From Candidatus Poribacteria bacterium (GTDB lineage Bacteria; Poribacteria; WGA-4E; PCPOR2b): a stretch of 64,000 bases of DNA. The stretch covers positions 74,357 through 138,356 of the forward strand of contig CBDBMC010000001.1 of assembly GCA_965207095.1 (NCBI GenBank), read 5' to 3'. The number at the start of each line of letters is the position of its first letter. Position 1 is the first letter of the stretch. The notes under the pieces were generated by a model. That model had not been told where the DNA came from, ran no database searches, and saw nothing but the letters and a program-made list of their open reading frames with translations. The translations under genes were made by a program, and so were the position numbers. This document shows positions 277-56,103 of the stretch, piece by piece.

Positions 277-3200
277 TTAGAATACCATCTTCTGCGTGGC
301 GGAATAGTCTCCTGCGGATAGGTGATAGAAGTAGACCCCGCTTGCTACCCCCTCACCGACGTTGTTTCTGCCATCCCAATAGATTGCTTTTGACCGACCC
401 TCGTAGACCGCTGCAATTCGATGCCCCACGTCGATTGTGCGGACGACCTGACCTGCTCCGTCATAGATGGTCAGGGTAACGAAAGCATCCTCTGCCAACC
501 GATACGGTATCCATGTCTCTGGATTGAACGGATTCGGATAATTTGCTAATAGTTCCGTCTCCGTCGGTATCTCGTAGGCAACCAATTCTGGTAACTGAAT
601 CAAACCCCATTTCACATCTTCAACTGTAACGGTATATCGCAACGGTTGCACACCGATGAGTGGATTGGGAGACCGAGCCGAGATTTCAAGGATATCGCCA
701 ACTGTAGCTGCGCGTCCTGTCTCTATATCAACGATGGCGGACCGATAACCGGCCGCATCGGGTGAGGTAACAGCAGCAACTGCACTGCGGGTTGAAAGGT
801 TCTTGACGGTTACTCGGAAGCTTTCTAACTTTAAGCCTGTTTCTTCGTCAACTATTGAACCGCTCAACCCCAAAATGGGTGTAACAGTATCCACTTCGAT
901 ACCCCGCATTACTACCGGTGACGCGGCAGCCATCGCGGAGGTATTATACCAGCCACTACCGGAGATAGCTACCGTTTCCTCTCGTAAAGTGGTCATGATA
1001 AAGGACTGTCCCCCGATGATTGCTATATCTGCAGAATCGCTTGTGGGATTAATCTGTTTGAACTCCCCGTTGTTATCTTGTGCCATAATCACAAGGACGT
1101 TATCTGCAATCCCTTCAAGAGTAAACAGGTTGCTCACATGGGTTATCCTTGAATCTCTCAACGGCACTCCCACAAGGTTGATACCGGGGTTTAGAGTGAT
1201 GATGCTGTTTCCATCTGTTCCGAGGCTGCTACCGCGCAGACGAAGCGGCACCGGGGTTATCAGATTGGTGATAATCCCCATATCATCAGTCAACTGTCTG
1301 TCAACGGGGGTGCTTCTGTCCGAGGGTTTGAGATAGCCAATCCATTGCTGAGTTTGGGAATTACGGGTGAAAAGGTAGATGACATTATCCTCGCTACCGA
1401 GTGCGTCGTAGAGGTCGCCGACCGATTCGATTGTCCCCGCTACTCCGTCAACCATCCTCACCTTCAACGGAACGTGAATCAAGCTGATACCTGATGGAAG
1501 AGCGAGATCAAATTCGAGTAGTTCAGCAACAGCATGAAAGGTCACAGTTTCAGCAATTCCTTCAACACTCACCCGAACTATGTTTGTGACAGGGTCGTTT
1601 CCAAGGGTCAGGGTACTTCGCGCTAAGCCGTTGGCATCACTGTCTACACTTGTCTCACTCAGCAAGCCTCCGCCTACGCTGGCAAGAAAGGTTACAGTAA
1701 CCCCTTCCATCGGGTCGTCGTACTGGTCGTGGACTTTTACGATGAAGGGTTGCATCAACGTCTCACCGGTCAACCCGATTTGATTATTGCCGGAAACGTA
1801 CTTCAGTGTCGTTGGTATCGGTAGTGGGGGAGTCGCCTCTGCACTAAAGAGTGCTGTTTGGGAAATACCTTCGGCACCGACTTTGACCACGTTCGTTCCT
1901 AGATTCGGTCCCAGCGTGAGGAGACTCTGTGCCCTACCATTGGCATCGGTTGTGGTGTTTGTCACACTGAGCGTACCACCGCCTGCAACAACAGCAAATG
2001 TGACCGAGCGCCCTGCGAGCGGAGAACCGTTTCCGTCCCTCGCTTCAACGACAAACATTTTTGCTAAAGTCTCATTAGGCATACCTTCCTGATTATCGCC
2101 TGAGATTTTCAATAGTTTTGATAGCGCAGATAGCGGCAATTGGTTGTATATGACTTCTGGGTCAAATAATATGGTTGAATCTTGACCCATTATAGCTAGC
2201 GTCATTCCATCAGGTGAAAATATGGGCCGTTTCCGAGCTGCAAAAATTTCAGAATCCAAGGTGGCAACAAATCTAGACGTTCTTGCATCCCAAACACTAA
2301 CCGAGCCACGACTTTCACGACTAGTACTTCTTAAAATCATCATTGAACTATCGGGTAAAAATGCCATAAAATCATTTCTATCAATAGTAGCCATGTCTCG
2401 CGTTATTAGATTCCATACCTTCACTCCTACATTTAATTTATGAAAAACAAGCATTGTTCCATCAGGCGAGAACGCTGCATAAGGACTATCACCGTCCAAG
2501 ATTTCAATGTTTTGTTTTGTGGCTATATCCCACAATCGAACAGTTTTGTCCCGTGATACAGAAGCAAGGGTATTCCCATCCGGCGAATATGTTATATGCC
2601 TAACTCCGTCTAGAGGTCCTCCCAATGTGGCGATAGGCTGCCCTGTTACAACATCCCATAATGTGATTATATGCCTCGTAGCCGATGCAAGCGTCTTTCC
2701 GTCAGGTGAAAACGCCCAATCTGCAACTGATGGATTTTCAATGATACCCGTCTGTGTTTGGGTTGGAACATCCCATAATCTGGTAAACTTTTCCCCACCG
2801 ACACGATACGCAAGTGTTCTCCCGTCCGGTGAAAACGATACAAGCCGAACATGGGAACTAGGCTTTACAGGAATAGTGGCAACATCTCTTCCTGTATTGA
2901 CCTCCCACACTTTTACGCCTCGAGTACCACCCGTTGCAAGCATGGTGCTATCAGGCGAGAACGATATAGGGGTCAATCCTATATGCCCTAAGTCAATAGT
3001 ATTGCCTGTGTTAATATCCCATACCTTTACAATATCATTCTGGGCATCAACAGTAAGAAAGGTCTTTCCATCTGGTGAAAAAACAATAGAGTTCATGTCA
3101 TAAACAGTAGGATCTTCATAAAGTGCAATAATGGACCGCGTTGTTACGTCCCACAAATGAATTGTATCAGGCGGAGAAGCCTCTATCCAAGCGAGTGTCT

Positions 3201-6003
3201 TTCCATCGGGCGAAAAAGCCACAGTCGAGATGCGCTCTGTCCTTCTAATCGTAAGGAGTTCTGTCCCTGTTATGGTATCCCACAATTTTACTGTGGCATC
3301 CCCTCCACCCGATGCAAGTATATTTTCAGTTGGTGAAAATGCGATAGAATTGACACGACCTGCATGCCCAAATGTATTTTTCAATTGACCTGTTAAGACA
3401 TCCCACACTCTTACTAATCCAGCCCACCCAGCACCAGCAATTAGAGCACCATCATGTGACACTGATATGGTATCAATAGTATCTTCAGAGTCCAGCCGTA
3501 CAAGCTCTTGCATTGTCACAATATCCCATAGTATTATTGTCCTTCCATCGGAGGACGCAATAGTTTTTCCATTGGGAGAAAATGCTACATGTCTACCAAT
3601 TCCTCCATCTGAACTAAAAGTAGTAATTTTTTCTTTTGTTACAATACTCCACACCTGATTCTGAATAAGCCCCTCCCGTGAGCTGCCAACAATGGCATTT
3701 CCATCGGGTGAAAATGCGATACTGTTCACAGGATATTGACTAGGAAGCAGCGCAACTTCCCTATAATTTACCGTATCATAAAGCCATATACCAGTACTGC
3801 TTGATACGGCGAGATATTGACCGTTGGACGAAAATGCTGCCGCCCTATCACTCCAGCCAGGACCTCCTTTGCCTATTCGGAATCTTGCTCTAGTTGGCAA
3901 ATTCCACGTTTGATACCTATTGCTTTCTCTTACTTCTTGTGTGCCTTCTAAAATTGTCACAGCTACCTTAGAACTATCCACTTGCTCTGTCGGTTCTTCC
4001 GAAAGGGTAAATTTTCTACGAGAAGATACATCCCCATTTATATCAACGGCTACAATAGAAATATCCTGTTGGGTATTCGTAGAAAGGCTAGTAAAACTGC
4101 TGCCTGGCACATCGCCATCATATTCAAATTTCACAACAACTTCCTTTTCGCCCATCAGGTGACGGCATGCTTTCACTTCCGGCAAACCAGCCGGAGCCAG
4201 TGAGCCTGCTGATGTAACAAAGAAGATAACTTGATGTATCCCTTGCGAATCAGCAACCTTAACTTGAATATCGACACTTTCTGATCCTGCTGGATACGTA
4301 GTTGATGAAGTCGATTTGATCGTTGGGGAACGCCCATTTTCAGTTGGAATATCAGGGTTGAAATAAGGACTTACCGACAAAAAATCAGCACTGCATTTGG
4401 ACAATCTATCTTGATCAGGCCCGTCACTAGGCGCTCGATTGTATCCCGCCCCATACGACATGATATATCCGCCGCTACGGAAATCGTGTTGTAGTCCAAA
4501 CGCGTGACCTATCTCATGAGCAGAGAGTTTATCATACCCCGGTTCGTTAGCCTCTATTCTGTCCTGAAAATGATGCGCAGGGATTAAGAGATTTCCACCA
4601 TTCTTTCCAGAACTCCCTGCATTAGCATTCACGCGGCTATTTCCAACTCCCGTACCAATACCATCAATGCTACTATCGACGACAATAAAGTAGATGTTTT
4701 GCCAAACATCAAATTCTTGTCGGACCTCAGTACGCACAGTGTTACCTGTATCGTCAACATAGTAAATCTCGGACTGTTGCCCATCCACACGATGTACCAC
4801 CGGCTTGCCTTGTGCATCACTTTCAATCTTGAAAGTCATATCATATCCATGCACCTTCATACTCTCGTTATAGAAGACTTGAACTCTGAGAATCTCATCT
4901 TTCATCCGCTGAACCACATTTTCACGATATGGACGGTCATTTGGTAAGAAGTAGATCAGCCGTACCGTGCGCGGTTCGCCGACGTTCCGCCCGCCAGCTA
5001 GAACGTCAACAGTGACTCCTCGATTCTGGAGGGTTGGGATATGGGTGCCGGAGGATGGAGAACTGAGAGGGTTTCCTCGCAGATAGACCATGTCTCCATT
5101 TCCCAATCCCGTATTTGCCACTAATGCTGATATATCCGATATCGAGTTGTCCACAACATACAGCGATGTCAGATTAGTCAAGCCCGAAACCGCTGATATA
5201 TCTGATACCCAGTTATACGGAAAATGCAGGTATGCCAGATTAGTCAAGCCCGAAACCGCCGATATGTCCGATACCAAGTTATACCCAAGATACAGCGATG
5301 TCAGCTTAATCAAGCCCGAAACCGCCGATATGTCCGATACCGAGTTGTTCCTGAGACTCAGGATTGTCAGATTAGTCAAGCCCGAAACCGCCGATATGTC
5401 CGATACCAAGTTATCCTGAAGATTCAGCGATGTCAACTGAGTTAAGTCTCCCAACGCTGATATATCTGATACCGAATTGTTTGAAAAGCCCAATGTTTTC
5501 AGGTGAGTCAAGTCCGAAACCGCCGATATATCTGATATGAAGTTATTCCCAAGATGCAGCAATGTCAGGTTGGTTAACCCCGACAATGATGTGATGTCCG
5601 AAATTGAGTTATTCCCAAGATGCAACGATCTCAGATTAGTCAAGCCCGAAACCGCCGATATATCTGATATGAAGTTCCACCCAAGATACAACGTTCTCAG
5701 GCTGGTTAACCCTGACAATGATGTGATGTCCGAAATCGAGTTGCGCCCAAGATACAGCGATATCAGGTTGATTGCATGTTCCAGCCCGGTCAAATCACTG
5801 ATGTTGGACTCTCTCGCTGTAAGACTTCTCAATGCTGCCATATCTGACGAGGTGATGGGATCACCTGACGCCTTGCCCAATTCCGCCATAATTGCAGCGC
5901 GGAGGTTGGGATCAGGGATGTCTACCGTTTGTGCGGTTGACGTTGACGGAATTGAGAGGAAAATCAACAGGATAAGGGTAAAACGATGAGCCGGTATTGT
6001 CAT
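277..6003 (-). CDS. Giant secreted mosaic protein: signal peptide, internalin-like LRRs, HEIGHAFGLQHD zinc-metalloprotease (metzincin-like) domain, WD40 beta-propeller repeats, Big (bacterial Ig-like) domains, shared DUF module, T9SS C-terminal sorting domain
   Basis: Single 1927-codon ORF; likely start at the internal ATG at 6003 (MTIPAHRFTLILLIFLSIPSTSTA signal) with GGGGAG SD. Motifs LxxLxLxxNxISDIS xN, HEIGHAFGLQHD (DNA at 4505-4519), repeated FSPDG..WD units, NYPNPFNPETWIPY...GVYFY tail (TIGR04183-like). Confidence 0.8.
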   Translation of the reverse strand: MTIPAHRFTLILLIFLSIPSTSTAQTVDIPDPNLRAAIMAELGKASGDPITSSDMAALRSLTARESNISDLTGLEHAINLISLYLGRNSISDITSLSGLTSLRTLYLGWNFISDISAVSGLTNLRSLHLGNNSISDITSLSGLTNLTLLHLGNNFISDISAVSDLTHLKTLGFSNNSVSDISALGDLTQLTSLNLQDNLVSDISAVSGLTNLTILSLRNNSVSDISAVSGLIKLTSLYLGYNLVSDISAVSGLTNLAYLHFPYNWVSDISAVSGLTNLTSLYVVDNSISDISALVANTGLGNGDMVYLRGNPLSSPSSGTHIPTLQNRGVTVDVLAGGRNVGEPRTVRLIYFLPNDRPYRENVVQRMKDEILRVQVFYNESMKVHGYDMTFKIESDAQGKPVVHRVDGQQSEIYYVDDTGNTVRTEVRQEFDVWQNIYFIVVDSSIDGIGTGVGNSRVNANAGSSGKNGGNLLIPAHHFQDRIEANEPGYDKLSAHEIGHAFGLQHDFRSGGYIMSYGAGYNRAPSDGPDQDRLSKCSADFLSVSPYFNPDIPTENGRSPTIKSTSSTTYPAGSESVDIQVKVADSQGIHQVIFFVTSAGSLAPAGLPEVKACRHLMGEKEVVVKFEYDGDVPGSSFTSLSTNTQQDISIVAVDINGDVSSRRKFTLSEEPTEQVDSSKVAVTILEGTQEVRESNRYQTWNLPTRARFRIGKGGPGWSDRAAAFSSNGQYLAVSSSTGIWLYDTVNYREVALLPSQYPVNSIAFSPDGNAIVGSSREGLIQNQVWSIVTKEKITTFSSDGGIGRHVAFSPNGKTIASSDGRTIILWDIVTMQELVRLDSEDTIDTISVSHDGALIAGAGWAGLVRVWDVLTGQLKNTFGHAGRVNSIAFSPTENILASGGGDATVKLWDTITGTELLTIRRTERISTVAFSPDGKTLAWIEASPPDTIHLWDVTTRSIIALYEDPTVYDMNSIVFSPDGKTFLTVDAQNDIVKVWDINTGNTIDLGHIGLTPISFSPDSTMLATGGTRGVKVWEVNTGRDVATIPVKPSSHVRLVSFSPDGRTLAYRVGGEKFTRLWDVPTQTQTGIIENPSVADWAFSPDGKTLASATRHIITLWDVVTGQPIATLGGPLDGVRHITYSPDGNTLASVSRDKTVRLWDIATKQNIEILDGDSPYAAFSPDGTMLVFHKLNVGVKVWNLITRDMATIDRNDFMAFLPDSSMMILRSTSRESRGSVSVWDARTSRFVATLDSEIFAARKRPIFSPDGMTLAIMGQDSTILFDPEVIYNQLPLSALSKLLKISGDNQEGMPNETLAKMFVVEARDGNGSPLAGRSVTFAVVAGGGTLSVTNTTTDANGRAQSLLTLGPNLGTNVVKVGAEGISQTALFSAEATPPLPIPTTLKYVSGNNQIGLTGETLMQPFIVKVHDQYDDPMEGVTVTFLASVGGGLLSETSVDSDANGLARSTLTLGNDPVTNIVRVSVEGIAETVTFHAVAELLEFDLALPSGISLIHVPLKVRMVDGVAGTIESVGDLYDALGSEDNVIYLFTRNSQTQQWIGYLKPSDRSTPVDRQLTDDMGIITNLITPVPLRLRGSSLGTDGNSIITLNPGINLVGVPLRDSRITHVSNLFTLEGIADNVLVIMAQDNNGEFKQINPTSDSADIAIIGGQSFIMTTLREETVAISGSGWYNTSAMAAASPVVMRGIEVDTVTPILGLSGSIVDEETGLKLESFRVTVKNLSTRSAVAAVTSPDAAGYRSAIVDIETGRAATVGDILEISARSPNPLIGVQPLRYTVTVEDVKWGLIQLPELVAYEIPTETELLANYPNPFNPETWIPYRLAEDAFVTLTIYDGAGQVVRTIDVGHRIAAVYEGRSKAIYWDGRNNVGEGVASGVYFYHLSAGDYSATQKMVF

Positions 6004-6294
6004 AGATTTTCTCCCCTGAAGCTGGAAACGTATATGGGACACTGGTATCTTGATGGTCATACCACCTACCCTATCTGGCTTGTGCCTCGCTGCCTCACCT
6101 GCTGACTTTCATTATCCCTACACGCCTAAGCTTTAGTAAGGACGACATGTGTATAAAGCACCAACCCAATGAACCAATAAACTAACAAAGTCCAGTAGGG
6201 TAATATGTAGTAGCTTCCCTTAATATAGGCTACTATAGGCAGTGTATCAGACTATAAACGGCGTGTCAAGTATGCCCTAGATGTTTTCTATCCT

Positions 6295-8247: not shown

Positions 8248-8497
8248 TTAGAGCCTGTTTTAAAAGTGAAACGGTCATCTTTAGGAAGTTCACATGTCGC
8301 CCCGCTGGGGCTTAGGTTGTTTGTTTGTCCCGTATTCTATAAACATGTCGCCCCGCTGGGGCTAAGAATCTGTTTTAAGAGTACGTGAAACGGTCATCTT
8401 TTGCCATTCTAGAGACACAATCAACCGATTTTGAGAGTATTTACCCGTAAACTGACAACTTTCAGAGATTATTTGGATTTTTCAAACAGGTTCTTAA
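8248..8497. repeat. Composite REP-bearing element, family A; REP copies at 8294-8312 and 8344-8363
   Basis: Same architecture as the copy at 1-230. Confidence 0.85.
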
Positions 8498-13315: not shown

Positions 13316-13385
13316 CTGTCGCCCCGCTGGGGCTTGGGAGATTTTGTTATCCCGTGTGCTCAATAAACATATCGCCCCGCTGGGG
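13316..13385. repeat. REP doublet (GTCGCCCCGCTGGGGC x2, 34-nt spacer ending AATAAAC) abutting the RAYT 5-prime end
   Basis: Copies at about 13316-13333 and 13367-13385. Confidence 0.85.
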
Positions 13386-13604
13386 CTATGTTGGTTCATT
13401 AGTCCATCAGTTTATTGGTGCAATTAATGAACCTTTGAGGCTACAGCATATTAATTTGAATCCCAAGCATCGGGATGGCGTATGCCTATCACTAACACCT
13501 TGGTTTCTATAGATTCGTGCTCATTCGTGCAGATTCACGGACGCCTTACGCCCTCTTCTTACCTGAACTTCCGTGACGTTGTTTCGTGCAGGATTGGTTC
13601 ACCT

Positions 13605-13672
13605 GTCGCCCCGCTGGGGCTTTCATTACTAGGGGATTTCACTTTTCTATAAACATGCCGCCCCGCTGGGGC
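13605..13672. repeat. REP doublet
   Basis: Copies at about 13605-13621 and 13655-13672, spacer ends CTATAAAC. Confidence 0.85.
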
Positions 13673-13847
13673 TAAATACACTAAAAATTCAGGGGGCAGC
13701 AGCCATCGTAGGGGCTTGGTTTCCAAGCCCATCGGGTTGGGTTACCCAACCCCTACGCCTCTCGCCCTCTCGTTTTTCCGTCTTCTCCGCTTTCCTCCGT
13801 GTTCTCCGTATAATCTTCTCAATCCGCGATTCAGACAAAAAGTCCAG

Positions 13848-18131: not shown

Positions 18132-18385
18132 TTAGAGCCTGTTTTAAAAGTGAAACGGTCATCTTTAGGAAGTTGTTCACATGTCGCCCCTCTGGGGCTT
18201 AGGTTGTTTATTTGTCCTGTATTCTATAAACATGTCGCCCCGCTGGGGCTAAGCATCTGTTTTAAGAGTAGATGAAACGGTCATCTTTTGCCATTCTAGG
18301 GGCACAATCAACCGATTTTGAGAGTATTTACCCGTAAAATGACAACTTTCAGAGATTATCCCGATTTATCGGGACAGGTTCTTAG
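18132..18385. repeat. Composite REP-bearing element, family A; REP copies 18181-18200 (variant GCCCCTCTGGGGC) and 18232-18250
   Basis: As other family A copies. Confidence 0.85.
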
Positions 18386-22321: not shown

Positions 22322-22391
22322 ATGTCGCCCCGCTGGGGCTTGGCTGTATGTGTGATATCCATATTCTATAAACATGTCGCCCCGCTGGGGC
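22322..22391. repeat. REP doublet
   Basis: GTCGCCCCGCTGGGGC at 22322-22340 and 22373-22391. Confidence 0.85.
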
Positions 22392-22554
22392 TAAATGAAC
22401 CGCTGAACCAATAACTTTTACGTTTCACGCATCATGTGTCACGTTATCGACAGCTGCAAACTAGCACCATTGGTTGGTAGGCATATTCCGTATGCCGTAA
22501 CCCGTGTACAAATTACGTCACGACGCAACGCACCCATTAAATTGCACCAATGGG

Positions 22555-33161: not shown

Positions 33162-34337
33162 CAGCCAACTGGGCAGCTGTATCTAATGACACCTCACGTC
33201 CGTACACTTCGACGCCGGCTGCCTCCATGATCTCTCGCGCTTCCGCCTCCCAGTTACCGGGAACACGGAAAAGACTGATTGTGTCTGCTGGCTTCCGTCC
33301 CACACCCTCGATACCCATCAGGACACCGCGTGCGATGACGTCCGCACGGGTATTGTTCACCACATTCATGATAACTGCCATCCCTCTAACGCCCGGCTTC
33401 GACAGCAGGAGCGACGTTATGGCGGCAACCTTCTCTTCAGTTGGGTTTCCGCCTACCTCGCAGTAGTTTGCGGGAGAACCGCCGTGCGCCTTAATTGCGT
33501 CGAAAACGGTCAGGCTTGCGCCACCGCCGCCGATCAGCAACGCGAGATCGCCGTCAAATTCGACCACCCGTCCGGCTACACCCCGATGGTCTATCGCATC
33601 AATTTGTTGTGCCTCAAGTTCCAGAGGGGTGGGCGGACGACCCGCCGCGGTCATCGTCAGTTCGCCCAACGGCTCCAACCGTTCCCTCTGTCGATACACC
33701 GCCTCGTCCTCAATCTCCACCCGCGCATCAAGTCCGATAAGTTTTTCGTCCTTGGCGACGACTAGCGGATTGATTTCCATTGTAACCCCATCGCAGGCGA
33801 GAAATGCTTGGGACAACCTTGGTGAAGGAACTTCACCGACCCCCACGAGCGTTTTGCCCGTCAAGCCGACTTCGGCAGCCAGTCCTCTCGCCTTATACGG
33901 CGCAAGTCCCGTCCACGGATCGAACGGCTGCCGTGCGACCTGATTGCCCTGAGTAGATTCAACGTCCACGCCACCGGCAAGACTTAACAGGGCAACGGGC
34001 AGTTTTGCGACCGTATCCCATGTAATACCAACGTAAAACTCATGTTCGTAGTTTAGTTTCGGTTCAATCGAAATGACATCAACGGTTGTACCGCGGAGTT
34101 CCATTCCGAACAAAGCCTCCGCCGCAGCGACGGCTTGATTAACGGTCTCCGCGAACTTCACCGCTCCGACGTTTCCGCGTCCACCGAAAGGGGTCTGCGC
34201 CTTCAGGACAGCGGGCAGCCCGACACGCACTCAACGGTTGATCGCACCTCGTCCATTGAACCTACCGGTGTCGATTTCGTAAAAATTAAGCCGAAATTAG
34301 AGAGTAACTTTTTGCTTTGATGTTCGAGGAGTCTCAT
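33133..34337 (-). CDS. sucC: Succinyl-CoA synthetase beta-subunit-like ATP-grasp protein with an apparent +1 frameshift near 34226
   Basis: N-terminal 45 codons (MRLLEHQSKKLL...VECV) from ATG 34337 are in a different frame from the body (GLPAVLKAQTPFGGRG...); the paralogous fragment at 36440-36596 reads through in frame, pinpointing one extra C. Confidence 0.65.
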
Positions 34338-34443
34338 CGCTTTTCCTTTTGACGGTGGCACCTTGCGTGATTATACCATATTCCGACAAAAGGATGGAGA
34401 GGTTTTGAGTCGTTTTAACCGACTAACGCCACGCTGTGAGCAC

Positions 34444-34487
34444 AAAAAAGCGGTATCATATCCCCTGAAAGAAGACGTGATACCGCT
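34444..34487 (-). terminator. Rho-independent terminator (AGCGGTATCA stem) followed by T-run on minus strand
   Basis: 10-bp stem, TTTTTT after it on the minus strand, 25 nt downstream of the 34513-35535 stop; duplicated at 36704-36747. Confidence 0.6.
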
Positions 34488-34512
34488 AGTTGTATTACTT
34501 CAAGATGACCCT

Positions 34513-35535
34513 CTAGCGCGTAGGAGGCTCATCATTTGGTTCGGAATGGACAGGAGGTTTGCGTCGTTCCCGTTCAAACTGTCGAGCCGCTTCAGGATCC
34601 ATCTCCCTGAAACGACGGAGCCCCTCTTTTGTGCCGTACTGGTCAAAGAGCTGTTTCGCCTGATCTCGTTGTTCCGGCGACAATCCCTCCCAGCCGCTCG
34701 CTTCAACACCTTTAGCAGCTGTCGGTGCAGGCGGTTGGGCGGTGGGCGGTTGGTATACATGCCTATCTTCGTGGTGAACAGGTTCAGTCGTGACTGAGGT
34801 CTTAGGTTCAGGCATTACAGGAGTCTCCTCAGAACGAGCAGGCGGAAAGTCTATATCCCCATCAATGCTTTCTGAAGAAATGCTATCGGGCGCAGGGGTA
34901 TCGGACCAGAGATGCTCAGGTACATTCCCAAAATGATACTCCTTATAACCCGGCGGAGGCCTTACATTCTCCAAATCCTCCTCATACACGATCTCAAAAT
35001 CGTCCTCGTCGAGCCCCTGTGCTTTCTGAGTCTTTCGTATTGCCAACATTAGTCCATGCCCGCCCTCTGGAAATAGGTAGTGTGCCACTTCTAAGCCAGC
35101 AATCTCTTCATCAATTGTCATACGTTCCCGTTTGTATATTTTTCGCATGTATTCGGAGAGCGTATGAACCTGTGGAATGTCTCCAAACATTTGAATCCAT
35201 TGGTCGTGCACAAAATCTGCTTTCTCGTCTGGAGTGAGGGTTTCTGAAGACGTTTTTTCTGCGGAGGCGGTTTGCTCCTGTGGAAGTGTCTTATGCAGGC
35301 GGTCATCAGGAATGAATCTCTCCCCATTCACTTCAACAACCTGCCCTTCAACAAAGTCGTTAGAATCTTCCATTTCATTTACTGATGAGGAGGAATTGTT
35401 AATAGGTTGGTTAACAACCGCAGGTGATTGAGGTAGATTTTCTATAAAGTTCTTTTCTTCCTTGTTTAGGTAGAAAATCCAGCCAGCCACGAAAACGACT
35501 ATCACTGAGAAAAATAGAATAAACTTTCGCATCAA
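34513..35535 (-). CDS. Hypothetical membrane-anchored protein with conserved C-terminal QLFDQYGT.EGLRRFREMDPEAARQFERERR motif
   Basis: 340 aa; N-terminal TM helix; paralog (frameshifted) at 36773-37923. Confidence 0.6.
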   Translation of the reverse strand: MMRKFILFFSVIVVFVAGWIFYLNKEEKNFIENLPQSPAVVNQPINNSSSSVNEMEDSNDFVEGQVVEVNGERFIPDDRLHKTLPQEQTASAEKTSSETLTPDEKADFVHDQWIQMFGDIPQVHTLSEYMRKIYKRERMTIDEEIAGLEVAHYLFPEGGHGLMLAIRKTQKAQGLDEDDFEIVYEEDLENVRPPPGYKEYHFGNVPEHLWSDTPAPDSISSESIDGDIDFPPARSEETPVMPEPKTSVTTEPVHHEDRHVYQPPTAQPPAPTAAKGVEASGWEGLSPEQRDQAKQLFDQYGTKEGLRRFREMDPEAARQFERERRKPPVHSEPNDEPPTR

Positions 35536-35701
35536 AATACCGTCCCTTCTGAAATCGCTTATTTGTGTAATAACAAGGCAAAAAAAATTGTGATTTTCCC
35601 TTATGGCATACTATTCTTGTTTGAAGAAATTACCGCCGTTTTTTTACCAGCCCCTACGGAGATACGAGTAGAGGCTGGGCTGCCTAGTTTGCTAACGATG
35701 C

Positions 35702-35986
35702 TTAAGTATCACAGCTAGCAACGGTAAAAGTTGTATGAATGGTTACCCATGACACGATCTGATAACTGTGACTAGTGTGTCCCGGGTTACCCATTATATG
35801 GTAGTTATAGTAGTGACCATATCCATCGTATACAACTGGCTCAAGGGTGATTCTAGTGTATGAAAGGTTAGCGCAGTAATTGTCGAAGTCATCGTAATAT
35901 TTTACAACATTTTTTACCCTTATCTTCTCGTCTGCTCCTGCTTCAGCCGATTCCGTAAGATATACGACCATTAGGCCGATCATCAT
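35702..35986 (-). CDS. Possible small Tyr/His/Gly-rich protein (weak call)
   Basis: 94 codons in AT-rich segment downstream of D-repeat copy 1; no convincing SD. Confidence 0.2.
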   Translation of the reverse strand: MMIGLMVVYLTESAEAGADEKIRVKNVVKYYDDFDNYCANLSYTRITLEPVVYDGYGHYYNYHIMGNPGHTSHSYQIVSWVTIHTTFTVASCDT

Positions 35987-36117
35987 GACGAGTGAAAGTG
36001 TGCAGAAGAGAAATGTGCCTCCTTTGAATTGTTAAGAATTTTTCCCTTACATCTATTTTGAGGTTGAGTTGCGACTTATTGAAAATCCATGCTTTTCAAC
36101 TCAACCACAATCTCATA

Positions 36118-36376
36118 AGGAGCAATTATCATGCCAAAAGAGACGAAAACCGCCCAAACCCAGTGGGCATCAGGCTTCAAGCACGAAATGTCCAAAAAGT
36201 CGTTGGAGGAAATAACTTGATATTAGTAAATATTGCTAGCAAATTTTACTAATGTTAGTAAATTTTACTAATCCTCTCGCACAAGTTCTAAGGGGGCAGC
36301 CAAAGCCCGTGCATCGCTGGAAACATCTAACATATCTCACAGCCTTGTCGACTTCAACGAGTGCTTGAGATAAGGT
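36118..36376. repeat. About 260-bp repeat family D, copy 1 (palindrome TTAGTAAATTTTACTAA)
   Basis: Copies at 45487-45750 and 47241-47510; the shared small ORF MPKETK..QTQWASGF is not frame-conserved. Confidence 0.8.
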
Positions 36377-36596
36377 GCGGTACAATATCAATTTTTGGGC
36401 AATCATCAACAACAACGGGCAGCTGAGATAACTTCATTCGCCCACCGAAAGGGGGCTGCGCCTTCAGGACAACGGGCAGCCCAACGCACTCAACAACGGC
36501 TCGCACTTCATCCATCGAGTTGACCGGCGTCGATTCCGTAAAAACCAAGCCGAAGTTGGAGAGTAATGTTTTGCTTTGATGTTCGAGGAGTCTCAT
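36354..36596 (-). pseudogene. Duplicated 5-prime fragment of the sucC-like gene fused to repeat-derived sequence
   Basis: MRLLEHQSKTLLSNFGLVFTESTPVNSMDEVRAVVECVGLPVVLKAQPPFGGR then unrelated tail; part of the segmental duplication 36440-37925. Confidence 0.6.
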
Positions 36597-36703
36597 CGCT
36601 TTTCTCTCTGAAGGTAGTATCTTGCGTGATTATACCATATTCCCACGAAAAGATGGGGAGGTTTTGAGTTGTTTCAACCGACTAACGCCACGCTGTGAGC
36701 ACA

Positions 36704-36747
36704 AAAAAAGCGGTATCATATCCCCTGAAAGAAGACGTGATACCGCT
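36704..36747 (-). terminator. Duplicate of the 34444-34487 terminator
   Basis: Identical stem and T-run. Confidence 0.55.
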
Positions 36748-36772
36748 AGTTGTATTACTTTAAGATAACCCT

Positions 36773-37923
36773 CTAGCGCGTAGGAGGCTCATCATTTGGT
36801 TCGGAATGGACAGGAGGTTTGCGTCGTTCCCGTTCAAACTGTCGAGCCGCTTCAGGATCCATCTCCCTGAAACGACGAAGCCCCTCCGCTGTACCGTACT
36901 GGTCAAACAACTGTTTCGCTGTGTCGTAAGAATCAAGCGATAGCCCTTCACCCATGATTGCCGAAGCCGATGGTGGGATCGCCGGGTGAGTGACATCAAC
37001 CCCTGTCTCGCTGCGGCGTGACGGCGTTTCGGGTTGAAATGATGCAGAAACCGGGGCTTCTGAAGCAGTATCTGTATTACCGCCCTCAGAAAAGTTTGAT
37101 ACCCCTGAATACCCACTAGCCGATACTGACTCACTACCTCCTAACACGCTCCGGGTGGAAGTTCTGCACCTTCTAACGCTCCGGGTGGAAGCCCTGCCCT
37201 GCTGCTGCGTAGCATCTTTTGCATCCAACCCGGTACCGCGCCTTCACCGTCATTGGGTAGGAAACTCACCTTCACCGGCGCCTTATCGGATAAGGGCGGG
37301 GGTATCATCTGAGGCTCTAACATCGCAAGTCTATCGTGTATCGTCTCCCCCTCGGTGCCACGCGGCTCAGCCGTCAGATGCGCTGGACGTTCCAATTCTG
37401 AGCGTAAGATAGCATCGCCCTCATCATACTCCTGACCTATAGGAACTATGACTTTATACATGGTGCCATCAGGTCCAATAACCCGCTGCATGATTTGATG
37501 GCGAGATAGCCGTACCTCCTTTTGATGCGTCTTTAGGTATGCCTCCACTGCGGGCGTTCTCTTGCCTGTTATAAACCATTCCTCTACCTCTAAATCTGAT
37601 TGACTCATCTCTTCTTCGGTATGGATTGAAAAACCGGCGATTTTATAGACATATTTACTACTACTATCAGGCTTATGTTCAGAATCAACACCCCCTGACT
37701 GTGGGGCAAGTGCCGACGCCGACTGACCGGCGGAAACTGCTGGGGCGGCTTCGGAAGAATGCACAGACTGGCCCACAACTGAACGATTAAACGCTTCAGT
37801 TTCCGATATAAACGCCTCAAACGCTACATGGTTCCGATAAGCCTTATACCCCAAATAAGTGACACTGAGCAATGCAATAATACTTACACCAATAACGTAA
37901 GGGTTGAAACGATGCTTTAACAT
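36773..37923 (-). pseudogene. Frameshifted paralog of 34513-35535 (two overlapping ORFs 37141-37923 and 36773-37228)
   Basis: N-terminal TM protein frame and conserved C-terminal motif are in different frames; a 28-bp imperfect tandem duplication (ACGCTCCGGGTGGAAG x2) sits at the shift point 37141-37200. Confidence 0.5.
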
Positions 37924-37962
37924 AGGATCACCTTCTATAAATTGAACTTAGGATGTCAACGG

Positions 37963-47240: not shown

Positions 47241-47510
47241 AAGCAATTGTCATGCCAAAAGAAACGAAAAACGCCCAAACCCAGTGGGCATCAGGCTTCA
47301 AGCACGAAATGGTCCAAAAAGTCGTTGATAGCGATTAAAACCCAATTATTAGCAACTGTTACTTAGCAACTATTGCCAAAGTTACCTTGAGCAACTGTTG
47401 CTAACTTTTTTGCACAAGTTCTAAGAGGGAAACTGAAGCCCGTGCATCGCTGGAAACATCCAACATATCCCACCGCCTTGTCGACTTCAACGAGTGCTTG
47501 AGATAGGGTA
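47241..47510. repeat. Repeat family D, copy 3
   Basis: Seen directly. Confidence 0.8.
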
Positions 47511-47559
47511 TAGTGCAAACTGTGCAACTCCCCATTCAGACTATTTTCTTTAGAGTTAA

Positions 47560-47805
47560 ACTATTGGTTTAACTCCTCAAAAATTAAATTTGCATCCTGT
47601 CTATATCCTCCTGTATCCTTTGAAGTATAGGGCTTACACAGTCAACTGTAGGGGTAAGATTACCCCACCCGTGCTTGTCAGAAATCGGTTGCTGTTACGC
47701 GATCTGTTATATGAACCAATTTATTTTCGACAACTTGAAACTATTTGTTTCAAGTTAAAGAATTTAAATTTGCATCCTGTCTGTGTCCCCCTGTATTCTT
47801 TAAGA
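47560..47805. repeat. Two direct about 45-bp repeats (AATTTAAATTTGCATCCTGTCT...) each preceded by a short palindrome
   Basis: 47582-47625 and 47761-47805. Confidence 0.6.
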
Positions 47806-47811
47806 TAACCT

Positions 47812-47950
47812 AAGTTGCTAATTAGCCTGTAGGTCGCCTTTCCACACTCGCCACGAATTAGACTCACTGAAGTCACGAATGCACATGCTAATTAGCCTGT
47901 AGGTCGCCTTTCCACACTCGCCACGAATTAGACTCACTGAAGTCACGAAT
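47812..47950. repeat. 1.8 copies of a 76-bp tandem duplication (CTAATTAGCCTGTAGGTCGCC...)
   Basis: Perfect 63-nt identity between 47812-47874 and 47888-47950. Confidence 0.85.
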
Positions 47951-48017
47951 CGCCCGCTGGGGCTTGGTGCGTGTAGGAATTCACTGCTGCTATAAACATG
48001 TCGCCCCGCTGGGGCTT
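47949..48017. repeat. REP doublet (first copy degenerate)
   Basis: 47949-47965 and 47998-48017. Confidence 0.75.
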
Positions 48018-48022
48018 TAAAA

Positions 48023-48082
48023 CTGTAGGTCGAGATTCACATCTCGACACAAAACCGTCGATTTCGGAAAATCGACCTACAG
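48023..48082. repeat. 60-nt palindromic hairpin element family E (CTGTAGGTCGAG...CGACCTACAG)
   Basis: Seen directly; related to 16854-16911. Confidence 0.7.
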
Positions 48083-48455
48083 AAATGATAGGGGATTAGG
48101 GCCTATTGGTTTGAATGTACCGACGACTAGCAACTTGCGTTAAAATATAGGACTTATGCAGTCAACTGTAGGTGCTCCGTTCCGAGAGTTGTCAACTTGC
48201 ATCTCCCGATTCATCGGGAGAGTCTTCGGAATGGGATTGAAACAGAGAGGAATCTCCCAATCCCGATACATCACTCCGCAACTTCTCATTTCATTTATTG
48301 GCTTATGTTAAAAGTTCGTGCAATAGAAACCGAGTTTTCAAGTCCCGATTCTCGGGATGCTCGGAACGGCAAAAAAACTCGGTTTATAGTGCTCGGTCTA
48401 TCAACTAGCAACTTGCGTTATAGAAAGGAAATGGGAACAGTGGAGAATCTCGCAA

Positions 48456-48594
48456 TTATAGTAGATTTTAGAGTTAATGAGACACTCCAAATCGGCTTGT
48501 CCCGATTCTCGGGATCCCGACAGATCGGGATTGGAAACAGCGCCTACCAGGTGGAGGGCGAAAGCGTCTATTTATTTTTAGAATCCGCCATAAG
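48456..48594. repeat. MITE of the GGTTGGAAACCGC family (ends TAGTAGATTTTAGAGTTAATGAGACAC ... TATTTATTTTTAGAATCCGCCATA)
   Basis: Related copies 50950-51228, 52626-52897, 63021-63370. Confidence 0.7.
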
Positions 48595-48629
48595 AAGGCA
48601 AACTACGTTTACCGAAAAAAGGAAGGTAA

Positions 48630-49601
48630 ATGGATAACCGACGAGCAATTCACCGCAGTCCGCGGACACAAAACCGAGACCTTGTGGGACACAGCCCAGC
48701 CACACAACAGGTGCGAGAACGTATTCGGCAGGCGGTTGACGCAAACGTTGATACGATTCTCCTCACGGGTGAAACCGGCACAGGCAAAGAGGTGGTCGCA
48801 CGGGAAATTCACTTTCAAGGGTCTTCGGAAGAGAATCCATTTATTGCTGTCAACTGTTCGGCGTTTCCAGGGTCGCTGGTTGAAAGTGAACTCTTTGGCC
48901 ACGTCAAAGGAGCCTACACCGATGCGACAGCGGATAGGGCAGGCTACTTTGAGATGGCAGATAACGGCACGCTTCTTCTGGATGAAGTTGCTGACCTCCC
49001 CCTCCACACACAAGCAAAGCTACTTCGGGTCGTCGATACGCGGACACTGATGCGGGTTGGCGGCACTCAAGAGATCTCTTTCCAGGAACGGATTATCAGT
49101 GCATTTAACAGAGATCCTGTATCCCTTGTCGAATCTGGGCAGTTCCGCAACGATCTATTCCATCGCCTGAACGTTTTTCCTATCCACCTGACACCGCTTC
49201 GAGACCGTCAGGAGGATATCCTACCGTTAGCAGATCATTTTCTGGAAGCATACACCGCCAGAAGTGGACGCAGCTTCGACACCTTTTCGGAGGGGGCACA
49301 ATCGACCCTTCTGGATTATCAATACCCTGGCAATGTGCGTGAGTTGCGGAATATCGTTGATCGCACTGCCGCTCTTTGTCCGCTAAAGGTTTCGCTGATA
49401 GGAGCTGAACATCTTGATATTCAAGGAGAAGTATTGGAAGAGATACCGTTGCAATCTGACCAATCAGCGGACGAGAATGAACAAGAGCGAATCTTGCGGG
49501 CACTGAAAGCAACCCGATGGAATCGTCGTCAAGCCGCAAAAAATCTCGGTATCCCCTACTCCACCTTCCGCGCAAAGATGAAAAGGTTGGGAATTTCGTA
49601 G
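48630..49601 (+). CDS. Sigma-54-dependent transcriptional activator lacking an N-terminal sensor domain (AAA+ sigma54-interaction domain + Fis-type HTH), with GAYTDA in place of GAFTGA
   Basis: 323 aa; GETGTGKE Walker A, ESELFGHVKGAYTDA, C-terminal NRRQAAKNLGIPYSTFRAKMKRLG HTH; AGGAAGG SD. Confidence 0.85.
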   Translation: MDNRRAIHRSPRTQNRDLVGHSPATQQVRERIRQAVDANVDTILLTGETGTGKEVVAREIHFQGSSEENPFIAVNCSAFPGSLVESELFGHVKGAYTDATADRAGYFEMADNGTLLLDEVADLPLHTQAKLLRVVDTRTLMRVGGTQEISFQERIISAFNRDPVSLVESGQFRNDLFHRLNVFPIHLTPLRDRQEDILPLADHFLEAYTARSGRSFDTFSEGAQSTLLDYQYPGNVRELRNIVDRTAALCPLKVSLIGAEHLDIQGEVLEEIPLQSDQSADENEQERILRALKATRWNRRQAAKNLGIPYSTFRAKMKRLGIS

Positions 49602-51232: not shown

Positions 51233-51485
51233 TAAGAGCCTGTTTTAAAAGTAAAACGGTCATCCTTAGAAAGGTGTTCACATGTCGCCCCGCTGGGGCT
51301 TGGGTTGTTTGTTTATCCTGATTCTATAAACATGTCGCCCCGCTGGGGCTAAGAGTCTGTTTTAAGAGTAGGTGAAACGGTCATCTTTTGCCATTCTAGG
51401 AGCACAATCAGCCGATTTTGAGAGTATTTGCCCGTAAAATGAGAACTTTCAGAGATTATCCCGATTCATCGGGACAGGCTCTAAT
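51233..51485. repeat. Composite REP-bearing element, family A; REP copies 51292-51310 and 51342-51360
   Basis: As other family A copies. Confidence 0.85.
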
Positions 51486-55737: not shown

Positions 55738-56103
55738 TCATTCCACTTCCGAAACTTTTACCTTCTCAACTTCATTCGAGATTAGCCACTCCAAAAAGTC
55801 TTCCTGCTCCTCGGTGATCTCAATTTCGGCTTGGTTTTGATCGTCTAACGGGGAGGTCACGTAGAACACTCCGTCGTCATACAGTTCAGATGTAAGCTCA
55901 AGCGGGAAGAAAAACGCATTTGGATCGCCGCTATGTTCCCATTGACGGGCACTGGCGCCCTCGGTGAAGTAGTGGAGCTGCCCGCGCAGCGTTTGTGAGA
56001 TTTCGTACGGTTCAAGCGTCGATTTGTCTATAGCAGATGCAAGATATTTAGCCATATTATCTTTTCCTATCAATTTGTATGCAATTACAAAGGTGGTTTT
56101 CAA
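55738..56103 (-). CDS. Small acidic hypothetical protein translationally coupled to the GIY-YIG gene
   Basis: 121 aa; ATGA overlap with upstream gene; C-terminal EIEITEEQEDFLEWL acidic tail. Confidence 0.45.
   Translation of the reverse strand: MKTTFVIAYKLIGKDNMAKYLASAIDKSTLEPYEISQTLRGQLHYFTEGASARQWEHSGDPNAFFFPLELTSELYDDGVFYVTSPLDDQNQAEIEITEEQEDFLEWLISNEVEKVKVSEVE

Follow-up and report, generated by a model that had tools for sequence, protein, structure and literature searches.

A sensor-less enhancer-binding protein with a GAYTDA loop adjoins a repeated sigma-54 enhancer-promoter cassette in a Candidatus Poribacteria genome

The 64,000-nt stretch of contig CBDBMC010000001.1 analysed here (assembly GCA_965207095.1, Candidatus Poribacteria bacterium, positions 74,357 to 138,356; hereafter the window) carries on its plus strand an open reading frame (ORF) of 323 amino acids at 48630-49601. 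It encodes a sigma-54 enhancer-binding protein (EBP) built of an AAA+ domain, a lid and a Fis-type helix-turn-helix (HTH) only. The ATG is preceded by a strong Shine-Dalgarno sequence (AGGAAGG), and the N-terminal MDN is common to all orthologs. The following features were assigned to the gene:

48630-49601, plus strand: sensor-less EBP gene (ORF call; Pfam PF00158, PF25601 and PF02954; best solved relative Aquifex NtrC4, 4l4u)
48768-48791, plus strand: Walker A, GETGTGKE, residues 47-54 (aligned to GESGVGKE of NtrC4)
48909-48926, plus strand: L1 sigma-54-contact loop GAYTDA, residues 94-99, replacing GAFTGA (translation, alignment)
48972-48989, plus strand: Walker B, LLLDEV, residues 115-120 (motif read)
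49098-49109, plus strand: sensor I region SAFN, residues 157-160, with Phe159 at 49104-49106 (alignment to LAATN of NtrC4)
49143-49169, plus strand: arginine-finger segment FRNDLFHRL, residues 172-180 (motif read)
49329-49352, plus strand: sensor II segment GNVRELRN, residues 234-241 (motif read)
49476-49589, plus strand: Fis-type HTH (HTH_8; Pfam), with the recognition helix PYSTFRAKMKRL at 49554-49589

Pfam assigned residues 18-186 to Sigma54_activat (PF00158; E 5.6e-62, 208.8 bits against a cut-off of 20.2, full-length with model positions 1-168 of 168), residues 191-263 to AAA_lid_14 (PF25601) and residues 283-320 to HTH_8 (PF02954). N-terminal of the AAA+ domain no Pfam domain was found, and the receiver model PF00072 gave no match; when the receiver domains of the closest paralogs served as tblastn queries, no receiver remnant turned up anywhere in the window. 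A first-pass annotation, made from the sequence alone, had described a protein with the AAA+ domain at its very start, no sensor domain and the PspF/HrpR-like architecture of a sensor-less sigma-54 activator, and the domain content agrees with it in each respect. The GAYTDA loop is also present as described there, but its coordinates (48907-48924) were wrong by 2 nt. The best solved relative is Aquifex NtrC4 (4l4u; E 2.3e-71, residues 8-322), followed by FleQ, NtrC1, ZraR and PspF, and in the alignment to NtrC4 and FleQ the Walker A, Walker B, arginine-finger and sensor II elements are all intact. All 25 NCBIfam equivalog models listed (NorR, NifA, RtcR, PrdR, AtoC, ZraR and others) scored below their cut-offs, the best being NorR with 301 against 476, matched over the central and HTH part only. 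An exact-sequence look-up of the 323-aa protein returned no record.

Orthologs with 77-90% identity occur in seven closed Poribacteria metagenome-assembled genomes (MAGs) of about 5-7 Mb, and the nearest relative outside the phylum has 49%. Clustering at 50% identity reduces the clade as a whole to two representatives in a library with about 180,000 EBP-like clusters. About 75 of the best 120 database relatives are sensor-less and 321-327 aa long, with 74-98% identity, some of them called with longer N-termini (relatives, numbered P0001 onward, are counted as 90%-identity clusters; L001 onward denote fetched loci of orthologs and relatives). In pairwise comparisons with six orthologs the EBP gene has a dN/dS of 0.23-0.34, which shows purifying selection.

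Among the best 120 relatives the loop reads GAFTDA in 54, GAYTDA in 27 and GAFTNA in 13, and GA[F/Y]T[D/N]A is family-wide in the roughly 75 sensor-less Poribacteria orthologs. The Tyr and Thr contacts to sigma-54 are retained in the window's protein, and the Gly at position 5 is Asp. Phe and Tyr are swapped at position 3 between orthologs that are 90-98% identical, and the loop of HrpS is always GAYTGA (PMC3105312), which bears out the first-pass statement that F-to-Y is tolerated. Its companion statement, that G-to-D is rare, did not hold up. Outside the clade, Asp, Asn or Ser stands at position 5 in 19 of 125 AAA+ domains (about 15%; from the nearest 148 50%-cluster representatives), as GAFTDA, GAFTNA and GAFTSA, and likewise in 8 of the roughly 70 unrelated EBPs that the fetched loci contain. 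In Desulfovibrio vulgaris, DVU2275 has GAYTDA and DVU2106 has GAFTDA, and such variants are regarded as compatible with activation (PMC4641369). GAYTDA is an ordinary natural variant which needs no special explanation.

Could the loop be a sequencing error, or the ORF a truncated response-regulator pseudogene? A probable assembly frameshift elsewhere, in a sucC-like gene at about 34230-34350, speaks for such an artefact. Against it, GAYTDA is found in 27 independent 90%-clusters from many samples, the 321-327-aa architecture with the MDN start recurs in about 75 clusters, and no receiver remnant lies upstream. Moreover, dN/dS is far under 1, and therefore neither sequencing error nor decay accounts for the gene; we give this explanation next to no weight. 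The loss of function which the first-pass annotation had considered is likewise very unlikely, given this dN/dS and the intact promoters and dyads that adjoin the gene (see below).

A further departure concerns sensor I. Because ISAFNRD of the query aligns with LAATNRN of NtrC4, Phe159 takes the position of the sensor I Thr (T148 in PspF), while Asn160 is retained; the Thr-Asn pair of sensor I is thus SAFN here. Position 159 is Phe in 96, Leu in 13 and Val in 2 of 113 clade members, compared with T in 138, S in 11 and A in 1 of 150 outgroup EBPs. Independent outside samples gave Thr in 69/69, and Thr or Ser in 119/120 with none hydrophobic; no hydrophobic sensor I residue was found among about 270 outside EBPs surveyed, compared with 112 of the 113 clade members. 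The same comparison of 113 clade members with 150 outgroup EBPs yielded four clade-specific departures at residues which are 80-92% conserved, namely Arg66 to Ser/Leu, Thr159 to Phe/Leu/Val, Leu163 to Pro (113/113) and Pro188 to Thr. The clade-wide loss of the near-invariant sensor I Thr, overlooked in the first-pass annotation, is more unusual than the loop. It lowers confidence in standard mechanics, not in family descent. To go by the title of a 2007 paper by Schumacher et al., this threonine of PspF is reportedly involved in coupling hydrolysis to restructuring of the complex of sigma-54 and RNA polymerase.

Intermediate forms exist. Receiver-bearing relatives with 60-64% identity combine GAFTGA with AATN. 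Among clade members, a receiver domain is present in P0075-P0112, L008 and L009; P0075 and P0112 combine GAFTGA with SAFN or SAIN, and other receiver-bearing members have GAFT[D/N]A with SA[L/V]N. In the sensor-less branch, GA[F/Y]T[D/N]A goes with SAFN. The likely order of the changes can be read from these intermediates.

The window was scanned for TGGCAC-N5-TTGC with a weighted pattern. Three near-perfect sigma-54 promoters of the form TGGCATG-N4-TTGCT were found on the minus strand (47242-47257, 45490-45505 and 36121-36136), against 0.07 expected. The first lies about 1.4 kb upstream of the EBP gene on the opposite strand; the second is the promoter upstream of the peptide operon which the first-pass annotation had proposed to look for. 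Each of the three ends a cassette of about 290 bp, and the window copies are 81-88% identical (301-nt query). In the sense of transcription, a cassette consists of a conserved block of about 100 nt, three 17-bp dyads, an A/T block, a hairpin with a T-run, and the -24/-12 promoter:

47242-47530, minus strand: enhancer-promoter cassette copy 1, divergent from the EBP gene (similarity search, alignment)
47242-47257, minus strand: sigma-54 -24/-12 promoter TGGCATGACAATTGCT (promoter scan)
47349-47365, 47363-47379 and 47388-47404, minus strand: three 17-bp dyads TTAGCAAC-N-GTTGCTAA, candidate EBP sites (dyad scan)
47316-47330, minus strand: A/T block with IHF-like core TATCAACGACTTTTT, between dyads and promoter (consensus resemblance only)
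47270-47292, minus strand: hairpin with T-run, terminator-like, just upstream of -24 (alignment)
45490-45745, minus strand: cassette copy 2, same dyad class as copy 1, with promoter TGGCATGTTAATTGCT at 45490-45505 (similarity, promoter and dyad scans)
36115-36376, minus strand: cassette copy 3, of the other dyad class TTAGTAAA-N-TTTACTAA plus hybrids, with the promoter at 36121-36136

The pattern TTAGYAAH-N-DTTRCTAA has eight matches in the window, all in cassettes, where 0.02 were expected. In 28 cassettes from 20 loci the distances between dyad starts and promoter do not vary (-136, -117 and -103); the dyads are thus centred about 155, 136 and 122 bp before the expected start, where enhancers classically lie. 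The GG and GC of the promoter are kept in 27 of these 28 cassettes (L006 has TGGTATG). Two dyad classes can be told apart, TTAGCAAC-N-GTTGCTAA (GCAAC) and TTAGTAAA-N-TTTACTAA (GTAAA), the latter with fixed hybrid sites. The hybrid dyads (TTAGTAAA..TTGCTAG and CTAGCAAT..TTACTAA) keep constant positions and occur in one cassette class; cassettes 1 and 2 hold a single half-site type only. The IHF-like core of the cassettes, TCAACGAC-TTTTT, lies inside the A/T block.

Other parts of the cassette are conserved as well. The block of about 100 nt distal to the dyads is kept between the copies (47420-47530, 45650-45745 and 36290-36376, minus strand), and four ortholog copies have an alternative version of it in which an 11-nt insertion makes a GATAAAAGTTATC palindrome. 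A small ORF across this block was considered and rejected, since the 11-nt indel breaks its frame in these four copies. Directly upstream of each -24 stands a hairpin GCCCA-N7-TGGGC with a T-run (47270-47292, 45520-45540 and 36151-36171, minus strand). This terminator-like hairpin could insulate the sigma-54 promoter from read-through; its stem is broken in about half of the ortholog cassette copies. A metagenome scan with the cassette core gave 0 matches. The lone match of another such scan, L081, has no sigma-54 promoter and was treated as chance.

The cassette is linked to the EBP gene. Of 17 distinct loci, 16 have a divergent cassette 0.1-1.5 kb upstream of the EBP ortholog; the loci with a conserved divergent cassette are L001-L005, L007, L026 and L082-L091. 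The exception is L006, a rearranged locus whose cassettes are found on the opposite side of the EBP gene. One locus, L087, has a sigma-54 promoter only about 120 nt from the EBP start codon and no recognisable upstream dyads (4864-5001); the enhancer part of this cassette is missing or replaced. Gene order around it is conserved: one flank holds a TonB-dependent receptor-like gene (CarboxypepD_reg and Plug) and a sucD/sucC-like operon, followed by a variable island of cassette-driven genes, the EBP gene, and a convergent string of HpcH/CitE, GFO/IDH/MocA and TauD genes. The locus combines an HTH_8 domain (residues 283-320) with three 17-bp candidate dyads 95-160 bp upstream of the adjoining promoter, and from this adjacency we infer that the EBP controls the promoter.

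The recognition helix of the HTH is the fastest-changing part of the EBP and hypervariable among orthologs. The 98% identical relative P0001 differs at seven residues, four of them in the HTH (residues 305-319; window 49542-49586) and three in the recognition helix (A315Y, K318G and R319K), which hints at a diversifying change in DNA reading. The type of recognition helix tracks the class of the adjoining dyads in 13 of 15 loci: a PYSTF-type helix stands by the GCAAC class in 8 of 10 loci and a PYSTL-type helix by the GTAAA class in 5 of 5. This pairing fits a direct reading of the dyads by the EBPs of the clade. A strict one-to-one match was rejected owing to the exceptions L001 and L089, and a statistical association remains.

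Taken together, we think it probable that the EBP is a functional sigma-54-dependent activator of a Poribacteria-specific subfamily, whose ancestor would have been an NtrC-type response regulator that lost its receiver. In the proposed mechanism, three EBP dimers would bind the three dyads through the Fis-type HTH and form a hexamer, as at NorR-type triple enhancers. An IHF-like bend would carry the hexamer to the closed complex of the sigma-54 holoenzyme, and ATP hydrolysis, acting through the GAYTDA loop with its retained Tyr and Thr, would open the promoter. Since there is no sensor domain, output would most likely be set by the amount of activator, possibly via the conserved upstream units described below, or by some trans-acting factor. 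The GCAAC and GTAAA dyad classes are probably read by different paralogs, and the PYSTF-type helix of this EBP would pair with the GCAAC class, i.e., with cassettes 1 and 2.

Several points weigh against this reading. The clade lacks the sensor I Thr, and normal activator mechanics are assumed; binding, ATPase activity and transcription are all predicted from sequence. The association of helix and dyad has its two exceptions (L001 and L089) and is confounded by shared ancestry, and cassette 3, with the other dyad class, may belong to another EBP. The search for rpoN covered the 64-kb window, in whose six-frame translation no RpoN box was found.

The sensor I substitution also bears on whether the protein activates at all. 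It might instead occupy the dyads without remodelling the sigma-54 holoenzyme, as a repressor, an anti-activator or a sigma-54-independent regulator. EBP-like proteins acting without sigma-54 exist (TyrR, VpsR and Rhodobacter NtrC). The changes Thr159 to Phe, Leu163 to Pro, Arg66 to Ser and Pro188 to Thr, at residues 80-92% conserved in the 150 outgroup EBPs, would be compatible with such a role, as would the absence of a hydrophobic sensor I residue from the outside EBPs. However, sigma-54-independent relatives typically lose GAFTGA, and here Phe/Tyr and Thr are kept in essentially all members, and purifying selection has preserved Walker A and B, the arginine fingers and sensor II. If the clade-wide sensor I change were inactivating, 28 well-kept, dyad-bearing sigma-54 promoters would lack any activator, which makes a non-activating role less likely; we regard it as improbable.

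A partner could also supply what the sensor-less protein lacks. Receiver-bearing paralogs (REC-AAA+-HTH, 71-75% identical) occur elsewhere in related genomes (L003/L008 in OY762266 and L002/L009 in OZ220744). The members of each pair are megabases apart, and the receiver-bearing one is an orphan, with no adjoining kinase and its own nearby hybrid-dyad cassette. In L008, an IS4/IS5-family transposase gene (4124-4903) sits inside the dyad region of this cassette (4006-4920), where its insertion splits two dyad matches, 4096 and 4920. Obligate mixed rings of the sensor-less EBP and such paralogs, similar to HrpR/HrpS, would make the paralog the signal input and the two HTH types two half-site codes, hybrids included. 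The presence of both types in the same genomes, the hybrid dyads at fixed positions in one cassette class, the sensor I substitution common to both paralog types and the likewise Tyr-containing loop of HrpS would all suit this arrangement. It sits poorly with paralogs that are far apart rather than in tandem, each with its own nearby cassette, with an orphan receiver paralog, with the one half-site type of cassettes 1 and 2, and with a single EBP gene in the window. A second EBP, for which the first-pass annotation had suggested a check, was sought in the 64-kb window, where tblastn with the EBP returned nothing but the EBP itself; the ortholog loci are likewise single-copy. We consider mixed rings unlikely and continue to favour a sensor-less activator acting on its own cassettes.

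As such, the protein can be placed among known systems. With PspF it shares an AAA+ sigma-54 domain, a C-terminal HTH and the absence of a cis-acting sensor (PspF chains, E about 4e-53), but it is not an ortholog: TIGR02974 gave 263.5 bits against 443.55 and NF008622 231.3 against 529, no PspA_IM30 match was found by Pfam among the 42 scanned window ORFs of at least 120 aa, the sensor I Thr is replaced, and the putative targets are secreted peptides rather than psp genes. Ser also replaces a conserved Arg beside the PspA-contact Trp of PspF (Trp56). The same Pfam scan of 42 ORFs revealed no kinase, PspA-like protein, second EBP or rpoN. HrpR and HrpS are also sensor-less, HrpS has a naturally Tyr-containing GAYTGA loop, and both are controlled through their synthesis and by trans-acting proteins instead of a sensor domain (PMC3105312). 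They form a tandem, co-dependent pair, whereas here a single gene is found whose nearest paralogs are distant and receiver-bearing, and no analogues of HrpV or HrpG were recognised. DVU2275 and DVU2106 of Desulfovibrio vulgaris Hildenborough are single-component EBPs with predicted or known regulons (PMC4641369); they belong to an unrelated lineage and are likened to the present protein by loop sequence. The closest sequence family is that of the NtrC-type response regulators (NtrC4, 4l4u), to which the REC-AAA+-HTH paralogs of related genomes also point. The EBP differs from it in having no receiver or remnant of one, in the GAYTDA loop and in SAFN instead of AATN.

The cassette has its own parallels. 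Three close dyads upstream of a sigma-54 promoter recall the NorR-type triple enhancer, an arrangement believed to nucleate a single hexamer. NorR, however, carries a GAF domain as its sensor, and the dyads here are TTAGCAAC-N-GTTGCTAA, with sites 2 and 3 overlapping by 3 bp. Putative mobile promoters, reportedly described by Matus-Garcia et al. in 2012 as homologous promoter regions before unrelated genes, resemble the cassette in that copies of about 290 bp with 73-88% identity stand before non-homologous genes. The cassette differs in being a full sigma-54 control unit of enhancer, bend site and promoter that goes with a single lineage-specific family of activators, and neither transposition machinery nor target-site duplications were identified for it. 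A search for literature on sigma-54 or RpoN in Poribacteria returned nothing relevant. New here are the cassette at the edge of the repeat region, its reuse before unrelated genes for small secreted Cys/His-rich and membrane-anchored proteins and before a peptide-maturation operon, and the clade-wide replacement at sensor I.

We raise one more far-reaching idea tentatively, and consider it unlikely. The clade may work without the sensor I Thr (with Phe/Leu/Val, Leu163 to Pro, and loop Gly to Asp/Asn) while controlling a portable two-code cassette that has spread before fast-evolving secreted Cys-rich peptides and their membrane partners. If so, the coupling path would have to be rewired, or sensor-less and receiver-bearing paralogs would have to combine in obligatory mixed rings. 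For the AAA+ mechanism, a clade under purifying selection with a bulky hydrophobic sensor I residue is a natural experiment that bears on the coupling of hydrolysis to sigma-54 remodelling. In the two classes of dyads, together with the rapidly changing helix, one has a small system for the divergence of activator-enhancer specificity after duplication. More generally, the locus is a sequence-defined regulatory circuit of an uncultivated sponge symbiont (activator, three dyads, bend site and sigma-54 promoter) which could be rebuilt in E. coli; by means of its cassette promoter, lineage-specific secreted peptides and membrane proteins can be assigned to a regulon.

The dense 1.1-kb repeat region which the first-pass annotation noted upstream of the EBP gene is real; that its left edge is cassette 1, firing away from the EBP gene, had gone unrecognised. 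Two further elements were delimited in it:

47542-47830, plus strand: two conserved units of about 110 nt (47542-47652 and 47722-47830), candidate control elements of the EBP gene
47808-48139, strand not assigned: window-specific 330-nt insertion with dispersed short repeats, absent from L001, L002 and L004

Each unit of about 110 nt contains a dyad with 10-bp arms, followed by an invariant TTGCA-N17-TGTAT..TTT. The arms have changed in a compensatory manner and are 97.5% paired, with both partners altered in 5 of 10 pairs. The units are 88-93% identical to those of L001, L002 and L004, compared with about 70-80% at synonymous sites, and number two in the window and three in these relatives (L001 8735-9505; L002 8907-9554; L004 8797-9496). 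An Rfam search of 45300-48700 with E up to 1 gave no match, and the units therefore do not belong to a known RNA family. A sigma-70 consensus scan of the region upstream of the EBP gene found no more matches than in shuffled sequence, so no promoter is claimed for this gene.

The insertion comprises a 70-nt tandem duplication, a pair of REP-like GTCGCCCCGCTGGGGCTT elements and a hairpin (48024-48085). Its elements recur at many other intergenic sites, and the rest of the 1.1 kb holds further dispersed palindromes. The REP-like GTCGCCCCGCTGGGGCTT has 20 copies in 64 kb (0 expected), 19 of them on the plus strand, mostly intergenic and paired about 51 nt apart, e.g., at 28-96, 8296-8364, 13318-13388, 13605-13674, 18183-18251, 22324-22393, 48000-48017, 51284-51351 and 57308-57376.

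Behind the cassettes lie the following genes:

46406-47215, minus strand: 269-aa membrane-anchored protein of no known family, first gene behind cassette 1
46014-46394, minus strand: 126-aa protein with signal peptide, second gene behind cassette 1
36773-45380, minus strand: gene string behind cassette 2, including two further ORFs beyond those described below (ORFs, Pfam)
34513-35986, minus strand: cargo of cassette 3, a 94-aa secreted Tyr/His-rich peptide (35702-35986) and a 340-aa membrane-anchored protein (34513-35535)

Homologs of the 269-aa protein stand behind cassettes in L001, L002, L004 and L026. The string behind cassette 2 encodes a 699-aa UshA-like/glutaredoxin/membrane protein, a 247-aa membrane-anchored coiled-coil protein, an 836-aa Peptidase_C39+DUF1573 protein (38809-41319), an FGE-sulfatase-like protein (37963-38799) and two paralogous Cys-rich precursors of 152-154 aa (42159-43161) with a double-glycine-like leader LDMEEMSQIAGAG. 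These precursors combine an N-terminal Sec-like hydrophobic segment with the double-glycine-type leader (LDMEEMSQIAGAG/GGS). The Peptidase_C39 protein carries DUF1573 Ig-like domains without ABC-transporter domains; for leader cleavage such a pairing is unusual. The cargo found in other genomes again consists of small Cys-rich proteins with signal peptides (65-150 aa), paired with mutually unrelated membrane proteins; cargo proteins of the cassettes matched no family in Pfam or NCBIfam.

The module of cassette 3 is flanked by a direct repeat of 483 nt with 90% identity (36439-36919 and 34178-34659), which duplicates the 5' end and upstream region of a sucC-like ATP-grasp gene; the downstream copy appears to be frameshifted at about 34230-34350. 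L001, too, has similar 5' pieces of sucC between its island genes. These repeats, flanking the module and recurring in L001, suggest that the island grows by recombination at the sucC repeat site.

Two other genes of the window deserve mention. At 277-6060 on the minus strand, a protein of 1927 aa combines leucine-rich repeats, WD40 beta-propellers and bacterial Ig-like domains; eukaryote-like repeat proteins of this kind have been reported for sponge symbionts. An acidic protein of 104-121 aa, belonging to no family (55738-56103, minus strand; L006 9253-9576), is 87-94% identical across genomes and thus more conserved than the EBP, and it adjoins the EBP gene even in the rearranged locus L006.

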